From the NCBI RefSeq assembly GCF_002571385.2, contig NW_019217908.1, positions 150,924-214,923 of the forward strand: a DNA stretch of 64,000 bases. Direction: 5' to 3'. Position 1 is the stretch's first letter. Each line of letters starts with the position of its first letter. The position numbers and the translations under genes were made by a program. Positions 4,087 to 48,300 of the stretch are shown piece by piece. This stretch comes from Stylophora pistillata. Lineage: Eukaryota. Below the pieces are notes generated by a model. The model was not told the DNA's origin and made no database searches. It worked only from the letters and a program-made list of their open reading frames with translations.

Positions 4087-6337
4087 TTAGACTTTAGTTA
4101 TAACCATGCCGTCAGCTGTTAGTTTCGATGAGTGGGCAGAACTTTCCTGGCTGATATCACTTCCGGCTGCCCCGTGTTCTGACTCGCCGTCATCGTCAAG
4201 ATATGATTCGATTTTAGAATTTGAATCCTAAAGAATAAAGAGAGGAGTAGTCAAAGGTTTGTCCTGGGGATGGGACAAAGTGTCCCTCCAGCTGCTTGAA
4301 GCCCCAAATGGGTGAGAAATATTGCAAATTTTAAGCTAGACGATCGAATAAACCTAGATAGAATCGCAACTGAATAAAATTTTGCATTCTGATTGGTTAA
4401 CGAAGCGAGGTATTTAGCGTGGAATTGCCAGTTGAAAACGAAGATAAGTGAGAGTGTTTTACACCTCTTGTTTCGCGCTCAGGATAGAAAAAAGTAATAT
4501 TGTTGCTTTTTATTCAATTATGCGATTTAAGGAAAATCCATAACCTGACTCGCGAATTCCGCGTTTAACAGCACTTGAAAACCGATATCGCACTTCGTAA
4601 TTTATGCCTCATTATCACTAATGCAATTTATACCTCAATATCACTACAGTGTAATGAGGTAATGAATTTTCCTTTAGTATCGATTTTTCACGGGCGTGCG
4701 ACGAAAAGATAAAAGATGCATTCATTGCATGCTGACCATAATAACAATTGCCTTACGATCGACCACACAGATGATCTGTTGAACGGGAAGAGAATGACAT
4801 TCCATCATTTTCCCTTGGCTGAATTCATTTGTCCATTTTAAAAAAGTTCGCACTTTTAATTAAAGGCACAGTTACCTACCTCATGTAACAACTTTATCTT
4901 TTTAATAGGTTCATATACTAATTTTTGAGTATTTGACTAATTTTCCACTTTACCATTTCAACTTTGTTGATATATCCAAACTAATTTTTGAGGGCTGGTT
5001 TGTTACCTGTGATAAGTAGCAGTCAGCCTCGTCATCCCAAATTCTGTCTTCCAATGAGCTATCCGAAAAAAAAGATGTGTTAACCCTAAAGACTAAGGAG
5101 GGTTGTTGTTCTGTCAAATGCCTATTTTGAGGAAAATTTTTAGAAATTTCGCTAAGATTCCACCAGACCTACAAAGTTCTCCATTAGTACCTGGCAATTT
5201 ACGACATTGAGAATACTTGAAATATCTTAAAACGGCGTCTTGCAATGTATACCGTTTGTGACAAGACAATCGTAAATTACCGTTGAGTAATAAGATAAGT
5301 TCTCGTACACCAGTAAATGAAAAACAACATAATGGATTAAACATTTCAATAACTGTACAAATATTTGACTGAAAATCCGATGCCAACATTGCAGTATCTC
5401 TACTTCGGAACAAATCTGCTCATGAGAAAAAGAGCCAGTTTGGTTCTGACCGATGCATCATGTTCTAAGCCCTCTGTATTTGTCACTCTCGTCTAAGGAA
5501 ACCGTCTTTCAAGGTACAGTTTTCAAGCCATGAGAGTGTACCCTGAATAGAGGTCACACTGTGCTAATTAGTGAATTTCACTGCAAACAACTTACTGTCC
5601 TTTCTTAGTGAGCACATAATCTGAGCCGCTGTACATTCCCGGGTCGCTTCCATATGGATGAGACATCCTGCAACAAAAATATGTTTTTTATGAAAAATTT
5701 AACAAATTCACAACGATAAGCGAGGCAAAAAACATATTACAAGTACCACAGAGGGAACTTTCTCGTATTGTAGTTAGTAAATGATTTGTCCGTTAAGGAC
5801 CAAGATTCAATCAGATATCGGAGAAAGGTAAAGAAGTGAGTAAATGTTAATACAGCTTTCTAATACCTGACAGAAGCTACACTCTTGTCTTCAATAGTAC
5901 CAATGACGTCATCATAATACGACCAGGAACCACTAGAAAATAATTTTTACATTACAGAGTAGCTCTGAACATGAAAAGTTCACGAGATTTGCCAGATCTT
6001 GCTTTTAAGCATGTTCTAATAGGATGAAGATATTTTTTTGAGTATTGCATAATATAAAATAAAAATGAAGTGAAAAAGAAATACCTTATAATGAAGGTTA
6101 TTTTACCCACTTTTTTCGAAGAAGAAGTGAAAAATAAAGCTTCCCAGCAAGGTAGTGAAATAGTTGTTCAGTTGTTTTCTGTGTCAGTATGATCATGCTG
6201 AAAAGAAACGGTTCGGGGGCATGGTCGTATCGAGATACAAAAAATATGTGAGCTCCATTTTAAACACCTACTTGCGATTGGTGGTTCCAAGTTTTCTTCG
6301 TGCTCTTGGCGAGTTATACATTTCACGTTTCTTTACT
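4087..6337 (-). CDS. Cadherin cytoplasmic-tail exons (6272-6337, 5867-5932, 5596-5667, 5007-5058, 4087-4227)
   Basis: Phase-compatible exons translate [34 protein letters not shown]...[34 protein letters not shown]...GMVITKV*. No classical catenin-binding motifs seen. Confidence 0.75.
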
Positions 6338-9300
6338 CTAAGAGACAAAATAGTGGATAACGATTCACTTCAAAAATTAAATGGTCCTTAGGCTGGTATG
6401 CGTAAAAGTAGGAGCGTTACCTCTCATGACGGAGGCACGAGTGAGCGTCAATGAGTTGTTACAATCTAACACAGGGAAACCTTGGTTTTGAGTTTTCTTT
6501 CGACATAAAATAGTTACCTGCAACGAGTCTTTAGGGCAAAACACAGACCAAGTAATAACAGCAGCCCAACAACGGATCCAAGGATGATAAGTGCTAGTTC
6601 AGCGTTACCCAAGCCACCGTCCTCCGTTGGAGATTGTGTGGTGGCAGAGATGGGAGCTCTGATTTTCCACCTGGCGTACAAGGTCTCCAACTGGTCAGGG
6701 TACTTTTCAATAGTGCTAGGGTAGAAAAAAAAGATGCCATGTTTGACAATAGCTTGTCTTTTTTCTTTATGAAAAAGCAATACTTGATTCTAATGTTTTT
6801 TTAAGGTGTCTTAAATAGTGAACGGAAAAAAGGTGGGAAAAGTAGCCGAAAAGTAGGTAGCAGTTCAGCATAGAGTAAATTTGCATAAACCATTCCAAGC
6901 TGTTTAAATTTCTCCAAACAATGAAAAGAATTCGCAGCCCTGTGATTACCAAAAATATGTGTCTAGCGAATGAAAAAAATATAGAAGAGAGAGATAGCTA
7001 AGCCTTAACTTCTTCTTCCCAATAAAAAACGGGTTTTTAGTGACATATCAAACAATTATGAAGGTAAAATATTTACCTCAGTACTTCATCGCTAGTCACG
7101 ATGGTCTGAGTATTAACATCAACAGCGTGAAACAACACTTCAGAGTTAACCATCTGTTTACCATCCGTGTTCTCTGAAAAGACTTTGAATATCGCTTCTA
7201 TGTTCACTTCAGCCTCAGTTATGTTATTCAAAACGCTAAGGAAAGAGCACAAAAAAATTAATAATTATGATAAAAAGAGAGACAGCATTCAGAAACAGTA
7301 GAAGACGGTCCAGTGAAGAGAACACGCATTCCCTTTCCCAGAAAAATGATAGCTTCAAATCTATTCATCTAGAAATTATCATAATGCGCAGAGGTGAAGC
7401 TGGGAGGTTGAAGACTACCTCGTGAAATGAGTTCGCTGAGCTAATCACGACACGTATCGACTCGCCTTTGTTTCATGAACGAATCTACAGATCAGATCAT
7501 ATAAAAGACACAATTCAAATGAAATGAATGGAACGTACAAAAGCGACGGAGACGTAATAAAAAAGAAAGAAATCATGGAGGAAGGAAAGAGGTGCCGAAT
7601 GGTGAAATGGTTGGATTATTCAAGTACGGATTTCTGGAAATTTTTCTTTTTCTGAGGCTTCTACTATTGACATTAGAATGGAAACAGGAAACTAAAACCA
7701 AGTAAGGACATGGGATAATCGACTTGTCACGTGCAAATACAAATAAACCAATGAGAATTATCAATCGGGTAGTCTCTAACCTTATAAATTCCTCTTTGTT
7801 TCGATCAATAAGAGATGGATCAACTTCAGCCTTGAGAGTTACTCGTTGCTCATCAATGAGTACAAATATCTGTAGGAAAGTAAGGACGTGTTGCCGGCAA
7901 TAAATACTAGTTACAAATATCAACAGTTCGTCGAGTATTTTACTTTTACGCAAAATACATATGCCATAGCCGATTGAATGGTTTCGGAATTGTGCTAACA
8001 ACTCATGCACGAGTATGATTATTTGGCCTTAATTCTGAAACGAATTCATTTTCGTTTTAATTTTCGTCCGATTTTACTATTCAAAGTTAAGCGACCTTTT
8101 AGTGTATAACATTTCTCAAATAAATCTCAAGGCACTTGAGAGCCACCATAAATTTGCAAACTTTAAGATTGGTTCTGAAGCCACAAAACAAAAGATGTAA
8201 CCAGAGCCAAATATAGTACCTGGACCGTGGCCTCTCCTTCAGCCTCGTTTGTTGGAGGCTTTCCGTGGTTGTCATGAGCGCTGACTTTAATTTCAAACCG
8301 TTCGCCCTTTTTCCCTCTAAAGTTGCTGGCAGTTGTTATGAATCCAGTGTCTTCGTCTATTTTGAAAAAGCCACCATCGTTACCAGAGGATATCCTATAT
8401 TGCACCGCACTAAAGTTACCAGCGTCTCTATCTGTAGCCTGAAATAATTATAATAACTTATAATTAACTATAATTATAATTCTATGGAGAAGCCAATTTT
8501 GCACATGCTCATAGAAACAGCGCGAGTCCCCTTATTCCATACATACACGGTGGTTTGCGGTAGGTCTTGGTAGAGGGGTGCTGTAATCCCAATAGCACCA
8601 AAATCTTTTATAAAAAGTCAACCTCCTCGAAAAAGGACGGCTGTGTGTCCGTATTCAAAAGTCAATTTTTTCACATGCTTATAGAAACCAGTATAACTCC
8701 ACTTATCCCATACATACGCGATGGTTCGCGGTAGGTCTCGGTCGAAGAGTGCTGTAGTCCCACTAGCACGAAATCTTATATAAAGAGTCATCCTCCTTTA
8801 AAAAGGACGCCTGTGTGTCCGTATTAGAAGAGAATTATCTGGATAAAACACTTGCGGAGGTTGTCGAAAACTAGGATATTTCCTTAGGGTTATTTCTTTT
8901 GCTGGCCTTTGAAATAAAAAACATTTGTAAAACATGGTCTCCTTCTCGTACCTTGACTTTCATTATGTACGTGTTAAAACTTGCAGCTTCTGCAACACCT
9001 AAAAAGACAAATTATTCTATTCATTTTCGCCAATGTTTACTTTCGTAATTGAGCACCGGAAAAAAAGCGGACTACCACTGAGTGAAAAATAAAGTAAAAT
9101 ACAACGGGGGCAATCAAGCAAGGGTACGTTAAATCATGGCTTGTTCCCCCCCCCCCCCATTACATGGCTTACGACTTAGTCGACCACTGTGGGGGGGAAG
9201 GTAAAGTATTCCTCACATTACAGAATTATTCCCGCAGAGTATCGTGAAGATTATATTTAGTTCAATTAGTCGATCTTACCTCCAGTGAAGAGCGGTCTGA

Positions 9301-15300: not shown

Positions 15301-18300
15301 CCATGTCATCCTTCAGAGAATACGTGATCTAGGATTTAAATAGAGAATATTACAAGAATTGGAATGTGTCCGCTCCGTGGGCTTGATCGCTAAATTTCCA
15401 GGTAAAAATCTACCGTCCTACCTACATCGTCTAGATTCTTCTTAAAAGCTTAAAAGTCACGAGGGAACCATAGACTGTGCGCTAATAACTACAGATTTAC
15501 TGAAAGAGGTTTTCGTGTGGTTAAGCGCGACCGACACTCGCTATCATTTTTTTCGACGGGCAGTACCAACAGCAGCAACAACCGCGGTCTGTTGAAAGCA
15601 ACCTAACGAACGGTAAAATTGAAGGTTGCGCTGGTAACGAGTGGCTTGCGACGGACTAACAACTGAGATCAGGTTTGGGCCAATTATCATACAGTAATCA
15701 GTAATAAAATGATAAACTCTAAGCTGAGTTCGTTGCCAATCATGTCATTAAGAATTTGGCGAAATGCGAAGGTCTTAGACTAGAATCTTCGGGGCCGACG
15801 TTCGCGACCTGAATAAGCATAAGTTTCAAAGATTATAAGGCTTCTCGTTTAGAATCAGAGGTTTCTAAGCACTGGTCAGCTAAGCTTTTCGAGAAGTAAA
15901 ATGACCAGTATTCAAAACATGCAGGCCGTACATTACCTTTGCGTTTGCTCCGGTATCTTCATCAGTAGCAGTAATCTGATCAAAGTATGTATCCACTTTA
16001 GTATCCTCTGACACGCGCAAAGTGTAGGAATTTTGTGAAAATTGAGGCTGATTGTCATTGAAGTCTGTCACAGTAATGTTCAGGAGAACAAAGGACGTCA
16101 ACTGGGGCTGACCGTGGTCACTGGCAGAAATATTCAGCACGTAGAATTTATCCCTCATTGATTCGTAGTCAAGACGACCAGAGGGACGAACTATGCCTGA
16201 TAATTCTATAAAAAAGAAAAATAAGAATTCAAACAAAAACAATAGCAATAACAACAACATTTGAGGTGATCTTTATCTCTTCACGTCACTTGGGACTGAA
16301 ATTTCTATATTATTCAAGAGCAAAAACAACAAAACAATCAAGCTACGCAGTTTACCATCATCCGTCAAAGTGTAAAACAGACGAATACCAAATTTAAGAG
16401 CACAATTTGCCAAATAGCCGTATATTTGTACCAAAACGTCCTGTGTTTTCAAGACCAACGGTCCTTCGAAGGCAATTTTGTAGTATTTTTATTGGAGAGA
16501 GTTGAAAGAGAGGTCCTTAAAATCTAAAGGATACAAACTTATTCTCCAAGCCGCAGCAGCGTGTAGTGTTTTTACGGGACATTTTCAAAGAATTCAGTTG
16601 ACGAAAACTCAAACTTCCTCATTTTTTATTAGGAATGAGTTTTTGAATCTTACCTTCAATAATGAACTTGTCGCCGGCACCATCGACAATGTTGTAAGAT
16701 ACAGCAGCATTGCTGCCTTCGTCAGCGTCCAGAGCTGTGACCCTTATAACCTAACAAAAAGCAAATAATTAACGTAAAGTTACCTTGCACATCCTGAAAT
16801 CCCATGTTGTTAGTGCAGCTGTTCTCGATAACATACCTGATATCCACCAAAGGCGTTTTCCGGAACTGGTGCAGTATATTCTGGTCGTGTAAATACTGGT
16901 GGATTATCGTTGGTATCTATCACCAGGACTTCAAGAGTTGTGTTACTTCTCAAAGGGGGGCTGCCTTTGTCTTTGGCCTGAGAGGAAGGGAAAACAAACC
17001 TCTAGTTTTTAACGGGTCACCCTCTCTTGTCGAGCTTTGCGTTGAACAAAAAGGCTCGTAGGAGGCAGCTTCTGTTCATTTATTTCTTACACATTCATTA
17101 GATGATTTATTTTTTGGCATTATTTATACAGGCATATTCAATTTCGCCAAGGCTGGTAAAAACAGGGTCTTTAAGATTAACATGTAGTACTAATGTTCTA
17201 TAAATTGTCCAACCGGTCTCGTTTCCATGCTTTCATAATCATCGTCCTCACACTTACCTCCACAGTCATGATATACTTTTCCTGCAATTCACGATCCAGA
17301 CTATATGAAGTACTAACATAACCAGTGTCTGGATCAATGATGAAAGGCAGGGTTACTAAAATTGAAAAAACAAAATCCAATTTTTTCTCACAATAGACGT
17401 TAGTGCAGGGGCGTAGCCAGGATTTTTCAAAGGGGGAGGGGGGCACAGAGGCTACTCACCATTTACACCGTTGCTCTCCCACGTGTATAAGCGGGCTCAG
17501 TTGTATTATCGCGGCATGAAGGCCCATATCAATGGCTTTTACGGCCAAGATATTGTCATGGCGTTTTCGCCACCTGAATATCGTAGGTTGTTTGCTCTAA
17601 AGAAGACCTACCAAGGGGGGGCCACGGGCACCCCAGGACACCCCTGGCTACGCCCTTGTAGTAGTTTTGCATAAATTGAATCAAAAGAACAAAACTGGTT
17701 CCAAGGGATCCGAATCTGTGGGCGCTGTGTTAACTAAGAGAGTTTGACGGCAGTGCTTCTTAAAGGCCAGGTTACCTTCGTCTTTCCCAGTGGACTCGCA
17801 TCCGTAAAGTTCCAGCCTCATGCAAATCCTGCCATTCCACGACTGAGGATGAACTCGCACGTAACGTGCGTGAAATGGAGGAAGAACACGATTCGTGTTG
17901 GTACTACCACCATCATTGTTGCCCTGGAAAACCTACAGGGGAAACCATGGTATCAGGAGCAGGCTGACTCGTACAGGCTATAGCTTTAATAGCTTACCAA
18001 CGAGCTATCTGTGGCTCAATGGTTGAGCATTAGATCACGAAATTATTTAAGGTCCCATTCTCCCAATTGAAAGACTTTAAATAGAGAGAGAAAACAGACA
18101 GGCTTTACATTCAAAATTGCAAAGAAGGTTATTTTAGATCAACCAAAAGCATGAAATTTCTGAACTAAACTTGACTTCAGTTAAATCGCACTTGCATTCG
18201 AAGATTCAATGCAAATCAATTTCCTAAGTTTAGGAAGAAAACAAGTCGCATATCTTGATGTTAGAACTTTGCGGTTTCTATTTGACTTTCTGTCATACCA

Positions 18301-21300
18301 CTCTGTGGAATTCAAAGGAGCTACCATCCAAACTGAACGACAGTTTGAAAGTTTTAACGTAATCGTTGGATCCAGGCCTCCCCTGTGTGGCAACTTTTGT
18401 AACCTTTCGCATTCCTCGAAAGTCAATCTGCAGATATTGTTTTTTGTTATTCGTTGCTGCACACCAAGCCCCTAAAAAGAAATAGACAAGGAAAGTATAA
18501 CTACCCTGCTTAATTATTGTTGTTGACGTTTTTATCGTTTTTTGTCGTTGTTGTTGTTGCTTTTTTAACTGGTGATATTAATGCAGATTTAAAAAAAATA
18601 CCAGTTTACTTCCTTTTCTTAACATACGCTCCGTGAGGTTTTGGTTTTGGTTTTCCACCACTCATCCGAAAATCCCTCAACTCATTCAACTCATCAAAAA
18701 GTTCAAAAGGCTCCAAAATATCTAAAGATCGTCACTTGAAGGAGTATCTTTGATACATTTAACATTTTTCAGCCACTCGATGTGTTTTATATTCTTCTCT
18801 TTTATTACAAACGTCAAGCAATGCTGTCAGTGAACAATCTTTATTAATTGTCTTTTTACCTTTGTAAGATATCCCAAACTGGTTAAAAACTTTGTTATTT
18901 AGTCTCCCCTGTGTTGGTGAGTAATCCTCGTTAGGGACAGTGTATGTACTTGTGGCTCGAGTGTCGCTGGCTTTGACGTCACCTTTCTCCAGTCCCAGAG
19001 GAGTCTCGCAGTCTGAGTGAATCGAGATCATTGACTGCCCTGGGCCTGAAAATAAGAAGACACGTACAATATAGCCCAAATGTAAGCTATTAGTTTCGAC
19101 TCACGAGAACTGCGGAGCAACCAATGACCAGCAACCATGGTCCTCAATGGCCTACCATTCAGAAGCAGAAGTAGTACTTTTACAAAACAATTTGACCATT
19201 TAGTGCTGCTTTGTGACACAGTTGCAGTTTCATTGCCTTTTTTGCGCTTCTGAAGACAGGGCTGCCATTTCGAGCCGTAGCAGCTCATCTGTGACATGAC
19301 TATGTTGCATGGCATTAATGTGTTTCCGTTGATTGTATCTTAAAACTCGATGTCCTCGTAATCTCATGCGTTTGGATAAACTTTTACATAGCTTAGTTCC
19401 AAAAAGTGCTCAAATTTAAAAAAATATATATGTACCAAAATATTGGAAAATTTACTAAATAAAGACAGATTCTTCCAAAAATCGCCGGACGACAATGTTG
19501 ATGAAAGTTCTATCTGATAATGTATTGGAATTCACTTAAAATGACTGTCTTACCAATATTCGCGTGAGTGATGGCATACTCAAATACAGCGTTCTCCCCT
19601 GCGTCGCTATCCAGCGCTTCCACACGACCGACTCTTGTTCCAAGAGGCACATCCTCCATGACGGTCATTTTGTGAGGAGAAAGGAACTGGAAATGAGGAG
19701 CGTTGTCGTTTTCGTCAGTCACATGGACGGTCACCTTTAAAAAGAAAGAAGCTTTAAAACAGAACTTATATGGTAGGCCCTAGACTTTGAAATCTGGATT
19801 AAGAGTTTTGGAGACCTAGTATGATGCACACCTTGATTCTCAGAAAAATAGATATAGTACCGCCTTTACGCAAACGGCGACGGCAAAAACGGTAGAAATT
19901 CATTTTGTTCCCCTTCGAGTGTTTATGGATTACAGCAAGAGTAAAAAAATTGTCTTAATAGCAGCAGTTCATCCATTTCTAGCATAGATGTATACTTACA
20001 TATCAGAAAACAAAAAATTAAATCAGAGCCAAATTTTGCTGTTCGTTGAACTGTAGCCTACATTAATGTGGACTGCTATGTGGGTTTATATGATACAGAC
20101 GAATAAGGTTTGATGACTTTGAATTATATCCTCAGTGCATAAGGATAGTCGAAAAGCTAGCTTCTACCCTTTCTGTAACCAAACAAGTGCAATGACTAGG
20201 AAGATTGAGGAACAGATAGCGGCAATTTAAGATTTAAACATAAGTCCTCTACCTTAGTGTGTTGTTTGATTGTTTTCTTACCGAAGTGTAGCCACTGAGC
20301 GGAGTTTGTCCGTTATCCATGGCTGGAACGGTGAACACATAATCATCACGAACTTCTCTGTCTAGCAACATCAATGTCGAAATTTCGCCCTATATGGGAG
20401 TTTGTAAATACTATTTTTGTTAGATGCAAAAATTTCTAAAATCCAAGTTTTATTTTCCCCAAACTGAAGAGAGAAGAACTTGCTGCCTTTCTATAACATC
20501 AAGAAATGGTTAAATATTCTAGTCTTCTCGGATAGGGACGAACAAATGGAGGTCCCGTCTCCTGCAGGGTTGGGGAAGGAGACGTTAAATTCCCACACAC
20601 GAGATTACTGTGTGATTCCTTTCATCTAGATCACCCCACAGTAGCGCATGTAAAAGATGCAACCTCTGCCTAAAAGAAAAACTACTCCTCATCTACCGAC
20701 CTGAATTACCATCAGTCAATAAACGTAATGAGCTTGTGTCCTCATGCCGCCACAGAAACAAAGTATTACTACGCAATAACTGAACAAAGCACTACTGCGC
20801 ACTAACTGAACAAAGCACTACTGCGCAATAACTGAACAAAGCACTACTGCGCAATAACTGAACAAAGCACTACTGCGCAATAACTGAACAAAGCACTACT
20901 GCGCAATAACTGAACAAAGCACTACTGCGCAATAACTGAACAAAGCACTACTGCGCAATAACTGAACAAAGCACTACTGCGTAATAACTGAACAAAGCAC
21001 TACTGCGCAATAACTGAACAAAGCACTACTGCGCAATAACTGAACAAAGCACTACTGCGCAATAACTGAACAAAGCACTACTGCGCAATAACTGAACAAA
21101 GCACTACTGCGCAATAACTGAACAAAGCACTACTGCGCAATAACTGAACAAAGCACTACTGCGCAATAACTGAACAAAGCACTACTGCGCAATAACTGAA
21201 CAAAGCACTACTGCGCAATAACTGAACAAAGCACTACTGCGCAATAACTGAACAAAGCACTACTGCGCAATAACTGAACAAAGCACTACTGCGCAATAAC

Positions 21301-36300: not shown

Positions 36301-39300
36301 CTAACCTATCACAGGATGTCCTCGGGTGTTATAGCGCCTACAATTCAACTATTTACCATTAAAAAAGCTTCTTTCAACCGTAAAAGGTTCCTTCTCAGGA
36401 AGGTCCCACAACACAATAACCCCTCGCTCCGAAGCTAAGCGCACTAACCTCTGACCGACCGCATTACCTATATCATCTTACCTAGTGCGTTTAAAAGGTA
36501 CCCCGGCGATATGTGACCGCAATTTAAGGGACTCAGGATTGAGAGGTCTGGGCATGAGATCTGGCGGGATCTTTATGTTGTGCTTTTGGCCAGGACACTA
36601 AACATTACTTGTGCCTCTCTCCACCCAGGAGTATTAGTGAGTAGCGGAGCTGAACCGTCAAGAAAGCCTCACGAAATTCTGTGGATTAACCTGTAATGGA
36701 CGTGCATCTTATCATGTGGGAGCAGCAAGTCGGGATAAGTTACAGAGGGAGTGCCATTCAGCTAAACAGAAAACTTGTACTATTTGGGACCCGAAAGAAC
36801 CTGGGTACAATTTCAGCGATGCATTGCAACAACTCCACGCCCAGAAACACCGCCTCAAGCTAAGGTAAATTAAATAAGCATGTTATTTAAGAAGAAATGA
36901 CAGAAATTCTTTTTTCACTTCACCTGCAACGCGACAAATCCTACACTAGAATGCTCCAGAAGATCTGCGAAGTAGCTTGCATTCTCAAATACCGGTGGGT
37001 TATCGTTCGCATCCAGGACTTGCATTGCCACAACGGTTGTATTGTATCGAGGGTGAATTGGATCTAGATCCATTGCACGTACCTCGAAACTATAGTTCGC
37101 CTTGGTCTCTCGATCCAGTACTCCAATGGCAGTTATTACGCCATAGTCTGACAGTGCGAACTTGTCTTTGTACTGGGGAGAGCTTGGCATATCTTTCCCC
37201 GTAACATGTCCTGGAATTGAAATAGTTCATTTCATAAAACCTAACCTGAAAGACCCACAGAGTAACTAATTGATCAATGGATGCTGAAGGAAGGACGAAC
37301 CGATTGACATAAAATTGCAATAAATATATTTTATCTCGTTGCCCTGAGGTTGTCAATTGGTCGTAGGGCAATAAAGGGGATACAAAGAAAGAAAAAAGGG
37401 AGATATAAATAAATTTCATTTCCAATTTTGAGGCCACTGACGTTTAGGAGCAACATTAAAGGACAGCTTGAAAGCATCGAAATTTGAATGCTGCAAGGCA
37501 AAGTGTAAGGAACACATCTATAACATAATTTTTAATATTACCGGACTGAAAATTTCAACTTTATCTGATCGTCGCTGACCTCAAAACTGAAAGACAGACT
37601 AATTCCTCATTTAAATTCATGGTTCACATTTTGTACCGAAACCATTTTCTTATGACAAATGGGGTTTTGCCAAGTTTGGATTTTGCCAAGTTACTACTCG
37701 TGACAGAGATGAAGACGTTTTATCAACACCTACGTGATATTTTATAGGAATGCAGGACTTCCTCATCAGTAAGGCGCTTGCGCCAAATTAGAAGATCGCT
37801 GACCGATAAGTTTCCATAATACTGAGGACTCTCAACATTGTTAGGTTTGCCAATGGTCAATGAGGTGAAAATATCGCTTCCACGTGTTACTTTCTCTGGG
37901 GCTTGTGTAGATGCGATCAGTTGTCCGTCTTGAAAGTAACGTAACCCTGCCTCTACACTCCATGTAAAAGTGAAGTAAAACCAATCCTGTATTTATCGAA
38001 AAAAGGGCAATTTTAATTCAATGTGAAAGCGATCAAAAATTTCTTTTCCTACACTTCGCTCTGTGATTGGTCTAAAAAATTGCTTCACTGGTAAGGTATG
38101 GTAAATTAAGCCAACATAATGCTATAGTCAGAATGTGTTCTCAACTGAACTTTGATAAGCCTTTGATTCTTAACAAGTTTTGCCTGCTGGTGCTAAGAGT
38201 GGAAGAGGAGGTTGAAGGGCTCTTAAAAGCTATTATTCTGAAGAATCAAATTGATCATAATGAAACATTTTGAGTTCAATTCTCGGCGTAATGCCATGAT
38301 TTCAAGGATGACACTCAAACGCACAATACTCGAACTGTCCTGGAACTGTATCTACTGAAACTCTCGACCAGACAGATAATTTAAAGTCGTTTGTATAGAT
38401 TCGCTTTGATATCTCATTGGCGTTCTCAAACAATAACTTTCTAATAGTGACCTCTGATCGGATCTAGATGTTCAAGCGCTCTGTTGTCGTTTAAACAAAG
38501 TCAACTTCATATGTTCAGTGTATCTGATTTATCATCACGGGTTTATTACGAATCAACTTAACGGCCTGCTCCCAGTTGGCTTGTTAGCTCAATTGGTAGA
38601 GCGCTGCACTAGTATCGCAGAGGTCAGTGGTTCGAATCCCGTACAGGCCTGATTTTTTTCAGGTCTGATTTTCGCTATTGCATAAATAGCGCTATCTACT
38701 GCGAAGGATCGTGCATCATACGTATTTAATACCGCAGTTCAAAATATATGAACTTCATATATTCATTGTAAAGTCAAATATTGTTCCAAAATTGATTTGG
38801 ATCAACAGGAACATTTAAAACCATATCTTACCGTTGGTATGTCGTTCAATTTTAGACTCCATTCACTAGTGGAGTTTTGCAAAACCAGCCTAAAGTCACC
38901 AGCCGCGGACTCCCGATAAAAATCGAATCCAGTGGCAAACCCTGACGCTCCGCCTGATGATATAACGTACTGACCAGAGACGAACTTTACCCAGAATGCA
39001 ATGGAGAGCCCTTCTGCACACAAACTCGGGTTACTAATGCAGTTATCTGGAAAGCAATACGAAAGTTAAGACATGATCTGAATAGTTGTTTTTAGTCGTT
39101 GTTGTTGCTTTTTTTGTTTGTTTGTTTGTTTGTTTTAGTTTCTTTTCTTTTTTTTTTTCTTTTTTTGCCTCCATCATGAAGTTTAAACGGTCAACTGACA
39201 ATGAAATAAATTTTCTCAATCGTGTGGGGCTTGAAAAACTACCAAACGTCATAAGACTCGGTAACAAAGATTAGAGCGTAGGAACGGTATAAAAGCGCCA

Positions 39301-42300
39301 TTGTAAAAGTTTCCAAAGCCATTCAAAGCCAAGACTCTCGATCTGGTTGTACTTCAAAACATTCATTTCAAGATGGCATGTATTTTTAAAATTAACGTCT
39401 CCCGCTCCTACTTCTGGAAAGGGAAAATCAATTAAAGAAAAATCCACAGTGTTTGACAAAAGTCGAGAATGTCGCCTTCACCTATAGCTTACGTTTCCTG
39501 TGAAAAGCCTGAGTCAGGCACATTACAAGGAATGGCAAACATGGCTTGACAAAAACGGCATAATCTTTTTAAGGAGCATGGTGCTTGGTGGGACGATAAA
39601 ACTCGAGAAAATACTTGGATCTCTGAAGGTGTCTCATTTTTTCCGAGCATTCTATTGAAACAGGAGAACTTAAGTTTGTATTCTCTCGATTAAAACCCTT
39701 TCCATATCATTTACCACCGCAATAAGCTGCCTTTCTGAATGAAAATCCAAAATCGGCCACTAGTGTCCAAAATCCAAATCGGCCATTGGTGTCCAAAAAC
39801 CAAAATTGGCCACCAGTGACCAAAATCAAAAATCAGCCACTGGTGTCCAAAATCAGCCACTAGTACCCAAAACCCAAAACTGGCCACTAGTGTCGAAAAT
39901 AAAATATCGGCCGCTGGTGTCCAAAGTCAAAAATCGGGCACAAAGGTCCAAATACAAAAATAGACAGTCAAAGACTGTATGTGGCTACTGGTATAACACA
40001 GTTTTTAAAGCACTGAAAATAACTAGAGGTTGTATAGAGACGCTAAAGGTAGTTTTCCAGAATATACACCTCACATGCAAAACGGGGAACCCACCGCATC
40101 CCCACTTATTTATGAGTACCCTGTTTCACAAGAGAAAGATAAATCAAGAACATTTTGTCTTATTATCCAACTGTGCTTCGTAGAGTACAAATAACGCGCG
40201 AGACGAGTACAAATATCACGCGATATTTGTACTTCAGAAATATCCGCGAAATTTTCCCGCACTGAAATAACAATTTGGCGTGTTGGATAAAAAATCTCTT
40301 ATTAGACGTTTTGTTGTGTACGGCAGAACTCGTAAAAATACTCAGCGATACTACACAACAAAAGGTCTAAAAAATTTATTGATTTTCAACCAATAATTAA
40401 ATGGTAACAAATAATACTATTAACAATAATACTGATAACAATAGTAATGTAATAATAATTAAAAGGGGCTAGCTAGAAAGCCTCATAGTTCCCCTATCCA
40501 ACAATAATTATCAATGCTTCTTTTAATTTCGCCTGCTAATCGTTAATAATTTTCTCATCTTATTGCATTTCCATCTTTTTGAGACTTTTGAGACTTTAGT
40601 TTCATATCGCTGTGATTAGAGTGACTATGTGACTATTTAAGCGTGACTACACGTGACCACGCGTGAACACGCAAGCAATGCATGAATAACTCACGCTAAC
40701 AAAACGAATTGATGAAATGAGGTATTGTGATGTCATATACACAAAGACTGAAACTTTGTCACAAAGAAAAGGCAAAAAAAAAACAACTGTGAAAACTTCT
40801 CATGCCCAAACATAATCTGTATTGAAAATCCCCCGTAAAAAGCGATTCATGATTTGTGACGAAAACCTTGATTCGAAACTATATTTATTGCATGACTCAC
40901 CAGATGTGATTATTTATTCATGAGGGGAACATGTCGTATCAGGTATCAGTCACGCACTTACATCACTGACTGATTCAACTTTTCTGTTCAACCATTCACA
41001 TGCGTTTCTGAAATTTATTACAAATAATCTCGTCTTGGCAAAATCCTTCTTAATGCATATCTAACGCAAGAGGACATTCGTCTGATTAAAATAAATCCTT
41101 CCTTCCTTCGTTTGTCTCTATATTGTAATGCAGACGTCATAGGGTCCATAGGTGAACTGGTCGACATAATCATAATCGAGGGCTTCATTTAAAACCGAGA
41201 TTTTAGCTGATGAGGCCTTTTGAATGTGTCATTGGCTTTCATCTTAGTACAAAACATACTGTGAAGTGTGTGTTTGAAGAGTAAAAGTATCCTCAAAGGA
41301 TTATGTTTTCAGTTTCGTGCCATTTTCCTTTCAAATACACTACAAACCCTCACTTGACGCCAGATTAACATAGTGACATTGCTTATGGAGAGGAATGTAG
41401 CAATACAACTTAAAAAAAAGGAGCCAGAGAGGTAAAATCGAAATGATGAGGTCAAGTAGCGGCGAGGGGTGTCGGATTCATGTGAGATAACCCTCAACCA
41501 TCCGGACCTCGAATTTAGTTATAGTGGGTTAACATCTATATATGGTTCGGGTTAGACTATCCGGTGATTATGGTAAGTGTATATGAATAGATGACTTTCC
41601 TTGCGCACGCGTAGGTAAGAGTTTATAGAACGGTGTGATGAAAAAACTTTCAACTGTTGACTCGTTTGCGTCATAAGAAAGAGGAAGCATTTTAAGGCTC
41701 ACGTATGGATTCCAAAATTAACCGATCAAAATATTCCTATTTCTTCAACTAGTTCATGCAATGTTTTAATCATTTTCGATGAAAACCAAAGTTGTCTAGG
41801 TATTAAAGAAGAGCCGGACTCAGTCGGAGCAGCTAAGGGATAGACGATGGTGGTTATCCGTTCGCTCCTCTAGAATTCATATCATTTATTTTTGTTCTTA
41901 TTTTGATTGTTTGTTTGTTTGTTTGTTTGTTTGTTTGTTTTCTCTATGAAATTTTTTTTTTATTCTTATTCATACTTTAAACCTGAGAATACTTTTTAAC
42001 ATGCATTGGTGTATATTCATTTCCTGTAAGGAATAAAGTTTCATCTTTCAGCTAAGTTTCTCAACCGCAGTTAGAAATATGAAAGAAGAAACAAGAAAAA
42101 GAAACTGTAAAAGGAAGTCAAGTTATGAGAAGGGTAAAGGGGGGGAATGGTAACCCTTCTCATACGGACCTCGAACTCCAAGTTAGTCTACGTTAACTTT
42201 TATAATTTCCTCTCCAAACGATTCAATAACTGTGGTGCACAATATTGGATATTGCCGTGAACACGCGCAGTACAGACAACGGTTCCATCTAAGTGTCCTC

Positions 42301-45300
42301 TGCGTTTTGACTAATCAATTGTGACGAAACGAAACAGAAATTAAATACTCTCTGACAATAAAAAAAATTGTAAAAATAACAATAAAAAAAAAAAAAATTC
42401 ATTTATTCGGATTTACTGCACCAGAGTCACCTTACGACGGATCATATCCAGACTTCCGCTTAAGAGACTACGCGAACAACACACGATAACAAATTACACT
42501 AAATTGTAGGAGAATTGAAGAAATCTCAAAGTAGAATTAAAAATTGGCTTCATAAGCTTCCTCAGAGCTTTATATATATATCTATAGGACCTTCTTCAAA
42601 AACACGTTCCGCTCTTTCAATGATATAATGTAACTTTAAGGTCGACATGCAAAGTAGACGCGAGTACTGTATGCAAATTTTTGTTACGCTTTGATAGACC
42701 AGATGAAACCGTCTCAAAATTTTAATTTCGAGGCAACCGAATGTAAAGCTAGTTCAGTTTCGATGAAAATGAAATCCAAGGGTAGAACTGTAAAATTATT
42801 GTATTCATTACTGCTTACTATCGAAAGATCGAGCGAATAATTTTCATAGGGATCGTATTTGCATGATATCATGTTTTGGAACAAACAGCTTAAGGGCCAC
42901 CTGTAACCTGGGTAACCACCTGACGTCATAGATAACGCAATCCCTATAAATCTCACGCTTTCGTTTTCGAAAGCTGCAGAATGTACGAAATAAAAAATTG
43001 CGCTATCTTGACAGTATTCCCTCTGAAGTGTTTTCCTTTTCTTATTCCGGCATTTTCTCTTAAATTTGTTTAACCTCAAAAATGAAAAGTCAGGTTAAGC
43101 CCGAGAGCTAGAATGTCAGGGCTGCTGTAATTATTTGCTAACCAAATGATCATGAACAAACAAATATAAATTTCTCTCTGACGATGCAAATGACACTGAG
43201 GAAAGACTCTATTTTTTGGATGGCGTCGAAGCGACATTTCTCCGGTTTTCATTCTCTGGGTAGAATAGTCCGTGCTGAGACCTTCCATAAAGCTTGTTAC
43301 CATTCCTATAAGTACACTTCAAAGTTTACGCAGGTCAGAATTGGCAACAAAGTACCACGCAAGAACATATTTGAAATGCGAATTCGTTTGAATGTTTTGA
43401 CGGAGGTTCCTGGTTCGTTAATTTATCGCTCGAGAAATTACGACAGAACATTTGATTTGCTGAAAGCGTAATGTCAGAAGTTATAATTCTCGTCAAGGCT
43501 ATAGATCCCCTATTTTACCAAATTTATTGAACATGCTTGATGGTTTAAGCTAGCTTTAATTTCCAAATAGCGGCCGGTGTAATATTAAATGCGTTGAAAG
43601 ATTTTGATCTGACAACCAATGACTCCTCTCCAACCTGTAAAGAGCTTTCAACAGATAGTAAAACAGAGATGAGGTCTAGTGAGTGGACGAGGGGTGCTGA
43701 TTTCTAATGGGTAACCCTCGACCGTCCGGACCTCAGAAGTAGTGAGAATTATGAAGGTATTTATACGGTTCAATCTGTTCATCTAACCCTTGTGGTGCTC
43801 TACATGCATTAACGCAGGCGCAATTGAAATCAGAACCAATTAGGAAAAACTTAATTAACAATGCAAGGGACAGGGAGTTCAGAAGGTTGGTCATAGGAAG
43901 TTATGCATGGATGGATTTCTCTACCAAGTGAAGGTTACGCGAGAATGATATCTTCTTGTTTTTATGTTGTGCAAAAACACTTTCTAAATAAATGCAAGTG
44001 TCAAATAATAAATAAATAAATAACTTAGCAATGAACATTCCACTGGGTGGCTCTTCTTGGCCACTGTTTCCAGATCGAATTGGAATTTAGAACGTTGGTT
44101 TTATGCGGTGGGAGGAAAACCGGAGGACCCAGAGAAAAACCCTCGGAGCAAGGACGAGAACCAACAACAAACTCAACCCACATGTGACGCCAGGTCCGGG
44201 AATCGAACCCAGGCCACAGTGGTGGGAGGCGTGTGCTCTCACCACTGCGCCATCCCTGCTCCCCCAAAGGCAAGGGAATACTGGAAGGTCGAATTATGGG
44301 CTGCAACACTCAGCTACAGATTTCCTTCCACGCGATCATTGTCAAAAGATGTATACTATTGATATATTTGGAGTTTTCGCTTGCTAGCGGGGCTTCATAC
44401 CAGGTTATGTTTGTGACAATGATTGAAAGAAATGTTTGAACATAAACCTCGTCGCGTTTACTTTCTTCGAACCCAACCAAACAATAATGTCACAAAAGTA
44501 TTTCGCGAAAAGAAATGACATGGCAAATGTCCTCACAGTTAGCTAGAACTTTTTTTCACTCTTCTTTGAATGTCTTAGTTGTGTTCACATGAAGGAATAA
44601 GAATACCGCTGACAGGAAAACATACGACTGATTGAGGAACATTTATGATCCACTGCTATAGGTTGGAAATAAACATAAATACCTTTGAAGTCTCCCATTA
44701 GTAACCAAGCCTCAGATGCTTCAAGTGACACCACATTGCCGAGGTCTGGGTCAAAGACTACTTTCGCACCATTTTTTAACTCTCCTTGGACACCAGCACG
44801 CACGTCCAGGACCTTGCCAGCATCTTCACGGTCAAGTGGCCATTGATGATCACGATAAAAACCTGGAGTACAAAGGACAAAGTGGAACGTCCATTAAAAA
44901 CTCTTAGGGTCCATATGGCTGTTCGAGTAAGAGCTGTGAAACCTAAACAAAAGTTTATAAAATGGCTAGGAAAAAAAAAAGGTAAGAACACCAGCCTGAT
45001 GGACGTCGACGCGTAAAATGAGAGTGACAAAATGGTAACTGGTTTTAGTTTGTATTGTTTGAAAAGGGAATGCGAGAGTTATAAAAAAATCACATTGTGT
45101 AAAAAAGAAAAACCCTCCAACCGCTACCTGTTCGAGACGTTCAGTTTGTAAAACAGAGTGCGATAGTAAAATTAGGGGTACGATAGTAGTTGTGAATGGA
45201 AAAAGCAGGAGGCCTGTGCCGGGTCAGAAAAATGAGGGAGGTTTGGGTAATAGAGAATCTCTCCCACAACCTGTTCCAGATGTTCAGTTAGCAAAACAGA

Positions 45301-48300
45301 GTGCGATGGAAAAAATTAGAGGCACGATAGTAGTTGTGAATGGAAAAAGCGGGAGGTCTGGGCCAGGTCAGAAAAATGAGCAGAACAATGGCCTTGCACG
45401 TGCGTTGTAAATCTTTGTAAATTTCTTTGCGTCTTCTGCAAAGCAAAAGCGTGAAATGACCAAACTTTACGTTGTCTGGAGAACGTGAGCGACGCCGGCT
45501 AATTTTATTTATAATTTCATTCTAATTTAACGCTGTGTTCCATATTTAGGTTTGAGTTTTGCCAGTGAGAAACAAACTAAATGACTATAGAGTATCGCAA
45601 GATTCGCAAGTAAAAAATAAGGACAGGTCATTTTTTAAAGGACGTTGTCCACAGCGTCACCGTTGTCGTTTCTTAAACTCCCTTTTTAAATTTTAACATC
45701 GCGCTCCTTTTTATAAGCGGGAGGTTTTGGCCGGTCAACAAAATGAGGGAGGTTCGGTCGTAGTGCACTTAATTGCGTTCCTTGCACAGCCCAACCCAAA
45801 CCCTCCTTTTTTCTTTCAACCCGACCCCGTCCTCCCGCTTCTAACCCTCTGCCGTTACTGCAGTGTTTTTACTTTTAGCGTCGCCCTCTGTTTTATCAAC
45901 TGAAAGCCTGGGACAAGCTAATCTAAACCCTAATCAGATTCGACACTTACCTGAAAATTGCGCAATTTTTATCAAAATGAATTGAAGAAAAACGTATATT
46001 GCTCTTTTTCGTTAAAGAGAAAGTGCGCTAATGAATTGCTGCTAATAACTACAACCTGATTTACAGTGGTGCAATGAGACTCAACAAAATGTTGCCGACA
46101 TGTAGCGCAAAAAACTGAAGATACATGTGATATTTTCTCACAAGTTACCTCGCTAATAACTTCAGACAGCCAGAGTGACGAGAATTGACAACTTGTACAA
46201 AGTTAAAAGTACTACACTTACTTGTCTGGTTCACAAATTCGTACTTTAGTTCGCCATAAGCAGAATTCTTATCGTCTTGATCTTTATCTACAGCAGTCAC
46301 TTCACCAACAACTTTGCTGCTATCAACGTAAGAGCCCTGTAACAAGATGAAGTCTTCCATTAATTTCAAATTCATTCACGAAAAAATTGGTATGCACTAC
46401 GTCTCGATGACAAGTGCCGAATATCTCAAACTCACCTCTAACGCAATGAAGAAGAACTTGTTCTGAGTGAACATAGGAGTGTTGTCGTTAACGTTTTCAA
46501 GCTCCACGATAATTGTGGTATTCCTGGAAGTAATGATAAGTAAAACAACATTAACTGTACCCTGAAGCCATTGTGGTCATCTTGACTGAGATCACATTTC
46601 TCCATTACTTCTTAGGGAGAGTCAGAGAATTGGTAGTTCGTTGTTACTCTTTGTGATTAATGCGTAATCTTTTGAGCGTCTCAAGCTTCCCCCAATAAGA
46701 AAGTCATCCAATGGTTGTTTGCTAATTATTTTGTTTACAATTGTTGGCTTTTCTATGTCTCGGGTTGCTTGTAAAAAATGTTGAAGGACAAACATTAAGC
46801 GAGACTGACGTCATCTGGCGAATCAGATTAGCAACGAAAGGTTTTTTTTTTTTTTCTTACTCGTTGGGGAAAATTAGACATTTTACATCTTTGTAGAGAA
46901 CCAAGTTTGTTATTTAGGGCCACCTTGTGAAACACCAAAATACCGACCCCGATAGAGGAGGCATCCCTTTGTCTGTTGCTGTAAGGGTTAGTGTGTATGT
47001 GTTTGGTTTTTCATCATAATCAAACGGTTGGTAACTTGATATGACGCCACTGGAGCTGTCCACAGTAAACTGAGAAGGAACCTATCATTGGAAAAAAAAA
47101 AAGAAGTTATTGTCAAAAAAGAAAATTTTCACCCTTGTATAATTCATTCTTTGACTAAGATAAAGATTTTTGGCTGATGGATTAATTCTCTCCACAAAAC
47201 TAGAGGAGGATTTATTAAAAAGATACTCAAGAGGATGAAAATAAAAAAAAAAAAAATTGTGCAAGGCGNGTCCCACTGGACCATTTGTCAATCAACCGTC
47301 GTGTGATGTAGAACTGTTAGAGTCAAGTCAACTTGAGCTACAGCTACTCCAAAGCAGTGAACAACGGGCGCATTCCTCAAAATTGTTTTATGTCTTCATC
47401 ACAATACAAGAATTTTTGAGATTTGTATTTCCTTTCTCCAATGGAAACTGTCTTTATTTGTGGCGGTAAATTTGAGATCGAAGTCGGTGGTTCGCACGTT
47501 ACCTCGTGCCACCATGCTGGTGGAAGTAAACAATAGATATCTCATTAGCTCCTTTTGTTCGTCTACCAGCATTTGAATTTGACCCGCACACGTCAACGGT
47601 GAGTAACAAATGAGCCTAGGTCTTCCCAGGGAAGACTTCCTTATATAGCGCGCCTTCGTGTTTAAAAAACAACCCAGCCCTGTTAAGTGTTACATGACGT
47701 ACCAGATTCAAACTCCGGTGGACTGTCATTCACGTCAGACACGGTGAAGCTGACCTGTAATCAAGAGTGGAAAATGGGATGGTGGAATACTGCATTCAAA
47801 AACGAGTGCTTCGCTCACATTCTTTAGATAGAAACTTTGTCACTCTAAGCTGTAAATTCCTGTAATCGTAACTATGTCGTTTCTCCACACAAAACAAGGT
47901 CAACCAAAGCCTCACTCCTGTTCAAAGGTTTGCCAACTAATTATAAGCACTGACACAAATGTAAAATGACTCTTGCAATTTGTTTGTTGAGGATAAAAGA
48001 TTCCATATCACCCGATCAGGTTATAACAAGTTCCGAATGAGTTACGTTCGACATGTAAGTGAAAAACAAACACTCCCACACGCAGTGCTTCTTCGCGACC
48101 TTAGAGACTGTTCCAAACATCTTAGCGCACTCAAATGCCTATATAGATTATGGTAATCCCCACCTTTGTGGTGGAGTTAAATGAAATTTCTCCTCCGTCT
48201 TTAGCCATGATCTATAACACAAGAAAAAGAATACATGTTTTTTAAAGAGGTTACGAAGCAAACAGTTTCGTAAAGTTGAGTCCACGATCAAACGGCGAAA

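Follow-up and report, generated by a model that had tools for sequence, protein, structure and literature searches.

We analysed a 64,000-nucleotide stretch of the genome of the coral Stylophora pistillata (the window; contig NW_019217908.1, positions 150,924 to 214,923), which holds almost exactly one gene, on the minus strand from 63960 to 4090, for a giant single-pass cadherin of 36 extracellular cadherin (EC) repeats, a membrane-adjacent domain (MAD), a membrane helix and a tail. We hold with high confidence that two of these repeats are each split by an inserted domain, EC11 by a LamG domain and EC28 by a discoidin domain. On our reading, to which we give a probability of about 65%, both inserts sit in the C-D loop of their repeat, the split repeats of this cnidarian cadherin refold, and the inserted domains form side arms whose likely targets are glycans, matrix or a neighbouring membrane. 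An earlier note on this DNA described the LamG insert alone and missed the discoidin insert in EC28.

A search with a LamG exon found a Stylophora pistillata record at a 100% match, and its cluster contains PFX26471.1 (P0002; 4403 aa, named ‘Cadherin-23’, from the same species), which maps exon by exon onto the window with GT..AG at every intron. P0002 matches the Pfam Cadherin family with 2021 bits in 34 stretches; the count of 36 repeats comes from repeat collinearity. On the minus strand, the exon map and RNA joints place an exon at 46436..46523 that completes EC10 and supplies the first EC11 strand, followed by the N-terminal half of EC11, up to strand C, at 46222..46336, which ends in a phase-1 intron. 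The LamG domain is then encoded by exons at 44683..44862 (180 nt, phase 1-1; single copy in a genome search), 38832..39046 (215 nt, phase 1-0, carrying a conserved Cys pair) and 37734..37986 (253 nt, phase 0-1, followed by a phase-1 intron), after which the exon at 36924..37210 supplies a return linker, the C-terminal half of EC11 (strands D-G) and the start of EC12. Between its two phase-1 introns the cassette measures 648 nt, or 216 codons. The five exons, with GT..AG introns, and the phase 1 on both flanks are as the earlier note had placed them, and its claim that EC11 is interrupted in mid-repeat, within the C-D loop, is borne out by the flanks, which in orthologues cover positions 2-45 and 45-105 of the cadherin profile, and by collinearity with the Nematostella orthologue, which identifies the split repeat as EC11. 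An N-x-S/T sequon in the EC11 N-terminal half is shared by 7/7 aligned orthologues. The RefSeq-model protein of the gene (P0001) matches Pfam Laminin_G_3 (PF13385) with 36.8 bits against a cut-off of 27.6 (Atlas 0.97). Pfam Pentaxin (PF00354) is not among the 8 families that P0001 matches at E<=0.1, so the label ‘pentraxin’ given earlier is loose. A phmmer search with a LamG exon against solved structures returned nothing significant.

In the exon map, the second insert splits EC28 at the same C-D loop and in the same phase, 1-1. Here the N-terminal half of the repeat (19554..19734, minus strand) ends in a phase-1 intron, three exons at 18860..19045 (186 nt), 18299..18471 (173 nt) and 17776..17932 (157 nt, ending in a phase-1 intron) encode the discoidin domain, and the C-terminal half resumes with strands D-F at 17258..17355. 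Residues 3083-3203 of P0002 match Pfam F5/8 type C (PF00754) with 88.3 bits (cut-off 28.2), and the two halves of EC28 cover positions 7-45 and 49-105 of the repeat profile.

To assess conservation, we searched for orthologues with residues 1030-1380 as the query; among the best 120 of 1717 matches, 7 covered the insert, and cluster members were added. Both inserts are present in at least 10 species, comprising stony corals (Stylophora pistillata, Oculina patagonica, Acropora muricata, A. millepora, A. palmata, Montipora foliosa and M. capricornis), Nematostella vectensis and two scyphozoan jellyfish (Rhopilema esculentum and Sanderia malayensis). Anthozoans carry the insert, as the survey suggested earlier was meant to establish, but its range is wider and takes in the scyphozoans. 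LamG was found in 16/16 models spanning both EC11 halves and discoidin in 15/15 spanning EC28, counts that exclude non-spanning fragments and refer to gene models, several per species, retrieved with a query that included LamG, and that are not independent proofs against skipping. Four RefSeq isoforms of Nematostella (XP_048580486-9) vary at their ends only and retain the inserts. Repeat collinearity with Nematostella extends over 37/37 segments in Stylophora and 30-32/37 in the jellyfish. Identity between Stylophora and Nematostella is 48% for LamG, 70% for discoidin and 40-70% for most repeats, and the inserts are 38-49% identical to those of jellyfish; judged by identity, the inserts are conserved on a par with the repeats or above them.

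A word-based search with length limits, and hence weak as a negative, gave no orthologue from hydrozoans, octocorals or outside the cnidarians, and a search with the MAD region gave 4 anthozoan orthologues only, among 366 candidates of 2421-7706 aa. Three JGI records (P0013, P0151 and P0152) were considered as uninserted orthologues and rejected on having only 5 collinear positions. They comprise 34-36 repeats, a MAD-like region, a membrane helix and an acidic tail, with no inserts, on contigs of ~22 kb; their second-last repeat has a 60-residue loop and their last two repeats best match EC35-36, and it is possible that they represent an outgroup. Scanning 133 proteins with at least 10 repeat matches for gaps of 60+ residues, a set biased toward matches of the queries used, we found a domain-sized C-D gap in this orthologue group only. 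In a single model from Acropora millepora, a further gap of 62 residues at the C-D loop was set aside because it looks like a gene-model error. Large blocks of other kinds occur elsewhere: P0015-P0019, P0021-P0024 and similar proteins (~6250 aa) have three ~700-residue blocks of another repeat type between complete EC repeats, and the giant cadherin of Corticium candelabrum (P0022) has one such block of ~1280 residues. Within EC8 of the Sanderia protein (P0012), residues ~830-1045 are a run of ~210 residues built from a simple 7-residue unit; the gene model has probably taken in a tandem DNA repeat here.

Intron positions suggest how the domains arrived. With introns placed on the repeat profile (n=65; 11 introns, the cassette ones included, were not placed), 8 lie in the C-D loop (positions 39-48) of uninterrupted repeats, 7 of them in phase 1, against phase 1 in 7/57 outside the loop, although these counts are not independent, the repeats being duplicates, and the limits of the loop were set with the data in view, so that a p-value computed from them overstates the contrast. 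The recurring phase-1 intron in the C-D loop offers 1-1 modules a ready place to land. We infer that both modules entered through such a pre-existing intron as phase 1-1 exon cassettes; the exon shuffling proposed in the earlier note fits this symmetry. Because they are present in both groups, both insertions would predate the coral-jellyfish (anthozoan-scyphozoan) split. The nearest non-orthologous relatives of the LamG insert (90 matches) are Laminin_G_3 domains of mosaic proteins, namely an Acropora LamG3-Kazal protein with 37% identity over exon 3, cnidarian astacin-TSP-LamG3 proteins and a Branchiostoma ADGRD1-like receptor; no cadherin repeats were detected in these relatives, and no donor was established.

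We modelled EC11-EC12 with AlphaFold2 from 10 sequences and obtained a mean pLDDT of 77.5, with 3/5 models above 70. Model residues 51-271 fold as a complete LamG-like jelly-roll, with a best Z of 19.0 at rmsd 3.0 over 199 aligned residues, which together with the Laminin_G_3 match upholds the earlier view that the three middle exons encode a complete LamG fold. This jelly-roll best matched the LamG-like subdomain in the binding regions of clostridial neurotoxins and AbnA domain 4, a carbohydrate-binding module (Z 17.6-18.5), at 10-18% identity and hence as evidence of fold only. In a wide structure search, model residues 1-442 aligned with CDH23 EC17-18 (Z 16.8); because 205/216 residues of this two-repeat structure align across the insert, the halves of EC11 are predicted to reassemble with LamG projecting, consistent with the side branch on the C-D loop that had been proposed. 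Foldseek alignments across the insert had rmsd of ~30-47 and were uninformative. For the second insert, a model of EC28 from Oculina (85% identical) resolved the discoidin core alone, which matched the CASPR2 discoidin domain with Z 15.5 and rmsd 2.3 over 112 aligned residues; the top structural matches of this insert were CASPR2, neuropilin and DDR domains.

In build, the gene looks CDH23/CDHR2-like and not Fat-like, as read from its domains. The MAD, encoded by two exons at 7077..7869 (minus strand; Pfam PCDH15_12th, P0002 residues 4132-4210), scores 30.3 bits against PF23206 (cut-off 27) and lies directly before the membrane helix, whose exon at 6518..6715 was placed by the exon map and by reading the sequence and which is the one hydrophobic helix found. 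The last coding exon (4090..4227) ends the protein in Thr-x-Val, and a C-terminal Thr-x-Val/Leu recurs in 7/7 orthologues printed; the Thr-x-Val end is a class I PDZ-type pattern. An EC array, a MAD before a single helix and a PDZ-type end are shared with CDH23, CDHR2 (PCDH24) and PCDH15, but CDH23 has its MAD after 27 repeats, whereas the present protein has 36 and two inserted domains. At the tip, CDHR2 and CDH23 chains align with EC1 from residue 26 of an Oculina fragment, although CELSR1 scores higher overall; the EC1 tip motif of CDH23/CDHR2 (Cr-2) combines an extended N-terminal strand with calcium site 0. The order of EC array, MAD and one membrane helix is described for CDH23, PCDH24 and PCDH15 in the available part of 10.1101/460097.

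Fat, Fat-like, CELSR and invertebrate classical cadherins also combine long EC arrays with LamG domains, but their LamG/EGF block follows the EC array, whereas the present LamG sits inside a repeat. None of EGF, Laminin_G_1/2, 7tm_2, GPS or the catenin-binding domain (PF01049) is among the 9 families matched at E<=1e-5. A Fat or Fat-like identity was rejected on at most 5 collinear best matches in Fat-type proteins, against 22-37 in orthologues, and on the missing EGF + LamG block before the membrane; a classical cadherin, on the missing PF01049 match at the same threshold; and CELSR/Flamingo, on the missing 7tm_2 and GPS matches and the single hydrophobic helix. Among the Fat-type proteins scanned, none has a domain-sized insert at the C-D loop. 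The database names ‘Fat 4-like’ and ‘Cadherin-23’ given to this protein are automatic.

We propose that LamG and discoidin would project sideways from a long membrane-anchored tether and attach it laterally to glycans, matrix or a neighbouring membrane, making contacts at two heights and leaving the rod length unchanged. Under tension, each repeat of a cadherin rod carries the load between its first and its last strand, and for this reason the arms would lie off the load path. The binding role is putative but probable. The MAD and the PDZ-type tail suggest that the protein may join microvilli, cilia or cells to one another as a CDH23/CDHR2-like link; a specifically microvillar or hair-bundle setting is a tentative and rather doubtful suggestion. 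It is also conceivable, if on the whole unlikely, that the arms act in protein-protein contacts, pairing or bundling the cadherin in cis with itself or a partner cadherin, and are not glycan or matrix binders. The CASPR2, neuropilin and DDR discoidin domains, the top matches of the discoidin insert, bind proteins, in keeping with such a role. Cis dimers are moreover reported for PCDH15 (10.1101/460097, in the part available). Against it, AbnA domain 4, which is among the LamG insert's nearest folds, is a carbohydrate-binding module.

Transcripts were examined in contigs of runs X1-X5, of which X1-X4 come from one study and X5 does not cover the exons, and in three raw-read runs. The joint 46222>44862 is present in contigs of 3/4 runs (X2, X3 and X4), and the joint 37734>37210 in one 772-nt X1 contig that runs from LamG exon 3 into exon 37210-36924 and on into the next exon. 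An X4 contig continues for 525 letters past LamG exon 1, a length that exons 2 and 3 would account for together with 57 nt of the exon after them (by arithmetic only). Both outer junctions named in the earlier note are therefore found in RNA, and splicing connects LamG with cadherin exons. An extra 13-residue exon of P0001 (~45410-45450, in a repeated element of the first LamG intron) was rejected, since the RNA joints run straight from 46222 to 44862.

The same note had suggested that the insert might be alternatively spliced, and we considered it improbable that skipping of the cassettes yields plain-rod as well as armed isoforms. Both skips would stay in frame without a stop, and after the discoidin skip the C-D loop would have a normal length of 9 residues; RNA depth is also low, and skip joints were judged among the joints listed. 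The LamG skip, however, would leave a loop of 21 residues, against 6-12 in ordinary repeats (n=25 pattern-matched repeats), so the frame is kept as claimed but the promised ‘intact EC’ is restored only roughly. No skip joint 46222>37210 occurs among the joints listed, at shallow depth, and all spanning models, the four Nematostella isoforms included, keep the inserts. The return linker is conserved as far as jellyfish, which suggests a constitutive LamG arm, and constitutive inclusion of the inserts is very probable.

Several points weigh against refolded repeats with binding side arms. Every RNA junction comes from one study, at a contig depth of 4-9; the joints shown are the two outer LamG junctions, not the inner LamG or the discoidin ones; and the three raw-read runs (~2-6% of each read) gave no depth on the exons. 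An uninserted orthologue was looked for and none was found, so the order of the insertion events is inferred, and the dependence among the intron counts given above belongs here too. The protein is not the anemone hair-bundle ‘CDH23’ of PMC3899209: a six-letter part of the C-terminal peptide given in the available text of that paper occurs, among stored proteins, only in P0014. P0014 is Nematostella LOC116612238 (7285 aa), with TNF, C1q and Ig domains among its precomputed Pfam matches. On the structural side, the EC11-12 model has a pTM of 0.55 and 2/5 of the models are poor; the match to CDH23 EC17-18 has an rmsd of 8.6, a loose geometry that probably reflects the inter-repeat angle in a calcium-free model; and the Oculina EC28 model has a mean pLDDT of 48, with both repeat halves below 50. 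These values, with the weak score of the EC11 N-terminal half against the repeat profile (5-8 bits), would suit split repeats that stay unfolded as halves, with the inserts in line as hinges or breaks in the rod. We regard this as very unlikely, because both EC11 halves retain calcium-linker motifs and the strand pattern, the alignment to straight two-repeat structures runs across the insert and the same loop is split in both cases. A separate nested gene or a misassembly, to which unplaced transcript upstream of 47083 and an in-frame stop (both described below) might point, is excluded by RNA that joins the LamG exons to cadherin exons on both sides, and is at odds with the same arrangement in at least 10 species, leaving it a negligible chance.

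The split-domain design is known from ADGRV1 and RTX adhesins; here its host is a cadherin. According to the available part of PMC12481715, AlphaFold2 predicts for ADGRV1/VLGR1 a LamG-like domain that protrudes from and splits a Calx-beta repeat whose segments reassemble. The likeness lies in a LamG-like domain that splits one repeat of a long rod, the halves rejoining; but ADGRV1, as described there, joins a Calx-beta rod to a 7-helix receptor, whereas our protein has cadherin repeats, one helix and a discoidin domain as its second arm. We assume that the two insertions are convergent. RTX adhesins such as AhLap likewise have ligand-binding domains that bud off the rod axis from a split Ig-like repeat, as confirmed by crystal structures and glycan binding in the excerpt available of PMC12077191; these are bacterial proteins without introns, their arms cluster near the tip and the solved case there exits after the first strand, whereas the cadherin arms exit at the C-D loop, in repeats 11 and 28 of 36. 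More speculatively, and with the odds clearly against it, the gene might represent a cnidarian-wide, undescribed subfamily of 36-repeat, PDZ-anchored links of CDH23/CDHR2 build, with binding arms that plug into the C-D loop as their socket, acting as side- or ankle-links in microvillar or hair-bundle complexes and converging on the ADGRV1 design.

Our literature search, which the main Nematostella cadherin survey lay outside, found no description of a split-repeat cadherin architecture, and none appears in the available parts of PMC4948710, PMC12549020, 10.1101/488270, PMC13245172, PMC8086859, 10.1101/602029 and PMC4942974. Hulpiau and van Roy 2011, credited in the part available of 10.1101/488270 with a list of 16 Nematostella cadherins, may depict this gene, and a linear map in such a survey would probably place the inserted domains between repeats. 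Cadherin repeats are treated as indivisible, and extra domains are expected to follow or separate them. That one gene has two independent domains in the same loop, and that corals and jellyfish alike have kept them, suggests that the C-D loop is a tolerant socket, with the recurrent phase-1 intron as the entry route for inserts. The Nematostella gene that encodes XP_048580486-9 is a testable case, and the loop is a likely graft site for cadherin engineering. There is also a warning here, in that linear domain maps miscount the repeats and misname the gene as Fat4 or CDH23.

Elsewhere in the gene, an in-frame TGA lies at 25572-25570 (minus strand) in exon 25743-25534, within repeats 21-22, where Oculina has Gly; it is either an assembly error or a null allele, and the PFX26471.1 model omits this exon, leaving 70 residues out. 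RNA contigs also contain 50 nt of exon, at 47752-47703, missing from the models (region 47083-47752, with an N at 47269) and ~126 nt of transcript upstream of 47083 that have no counterpart in the assembly, and for these reasons 60 residues are missing from EC9-10 in P0002. High-copy repeats, abundant in the RNA runs, occupy intronic positions 38535-38770, 40130-40390, 43820-44300 and 47270-47670, the first of which resembles, by eye, a tRNA-derived short element. On the plus strand at 640-1617, tail to tail with the cadherin gene, lies an intronless rhodopsin-family G-protein-coupled receptor (GPCR) reading frame (Pfam 7tm_1, E 4.6e-37).

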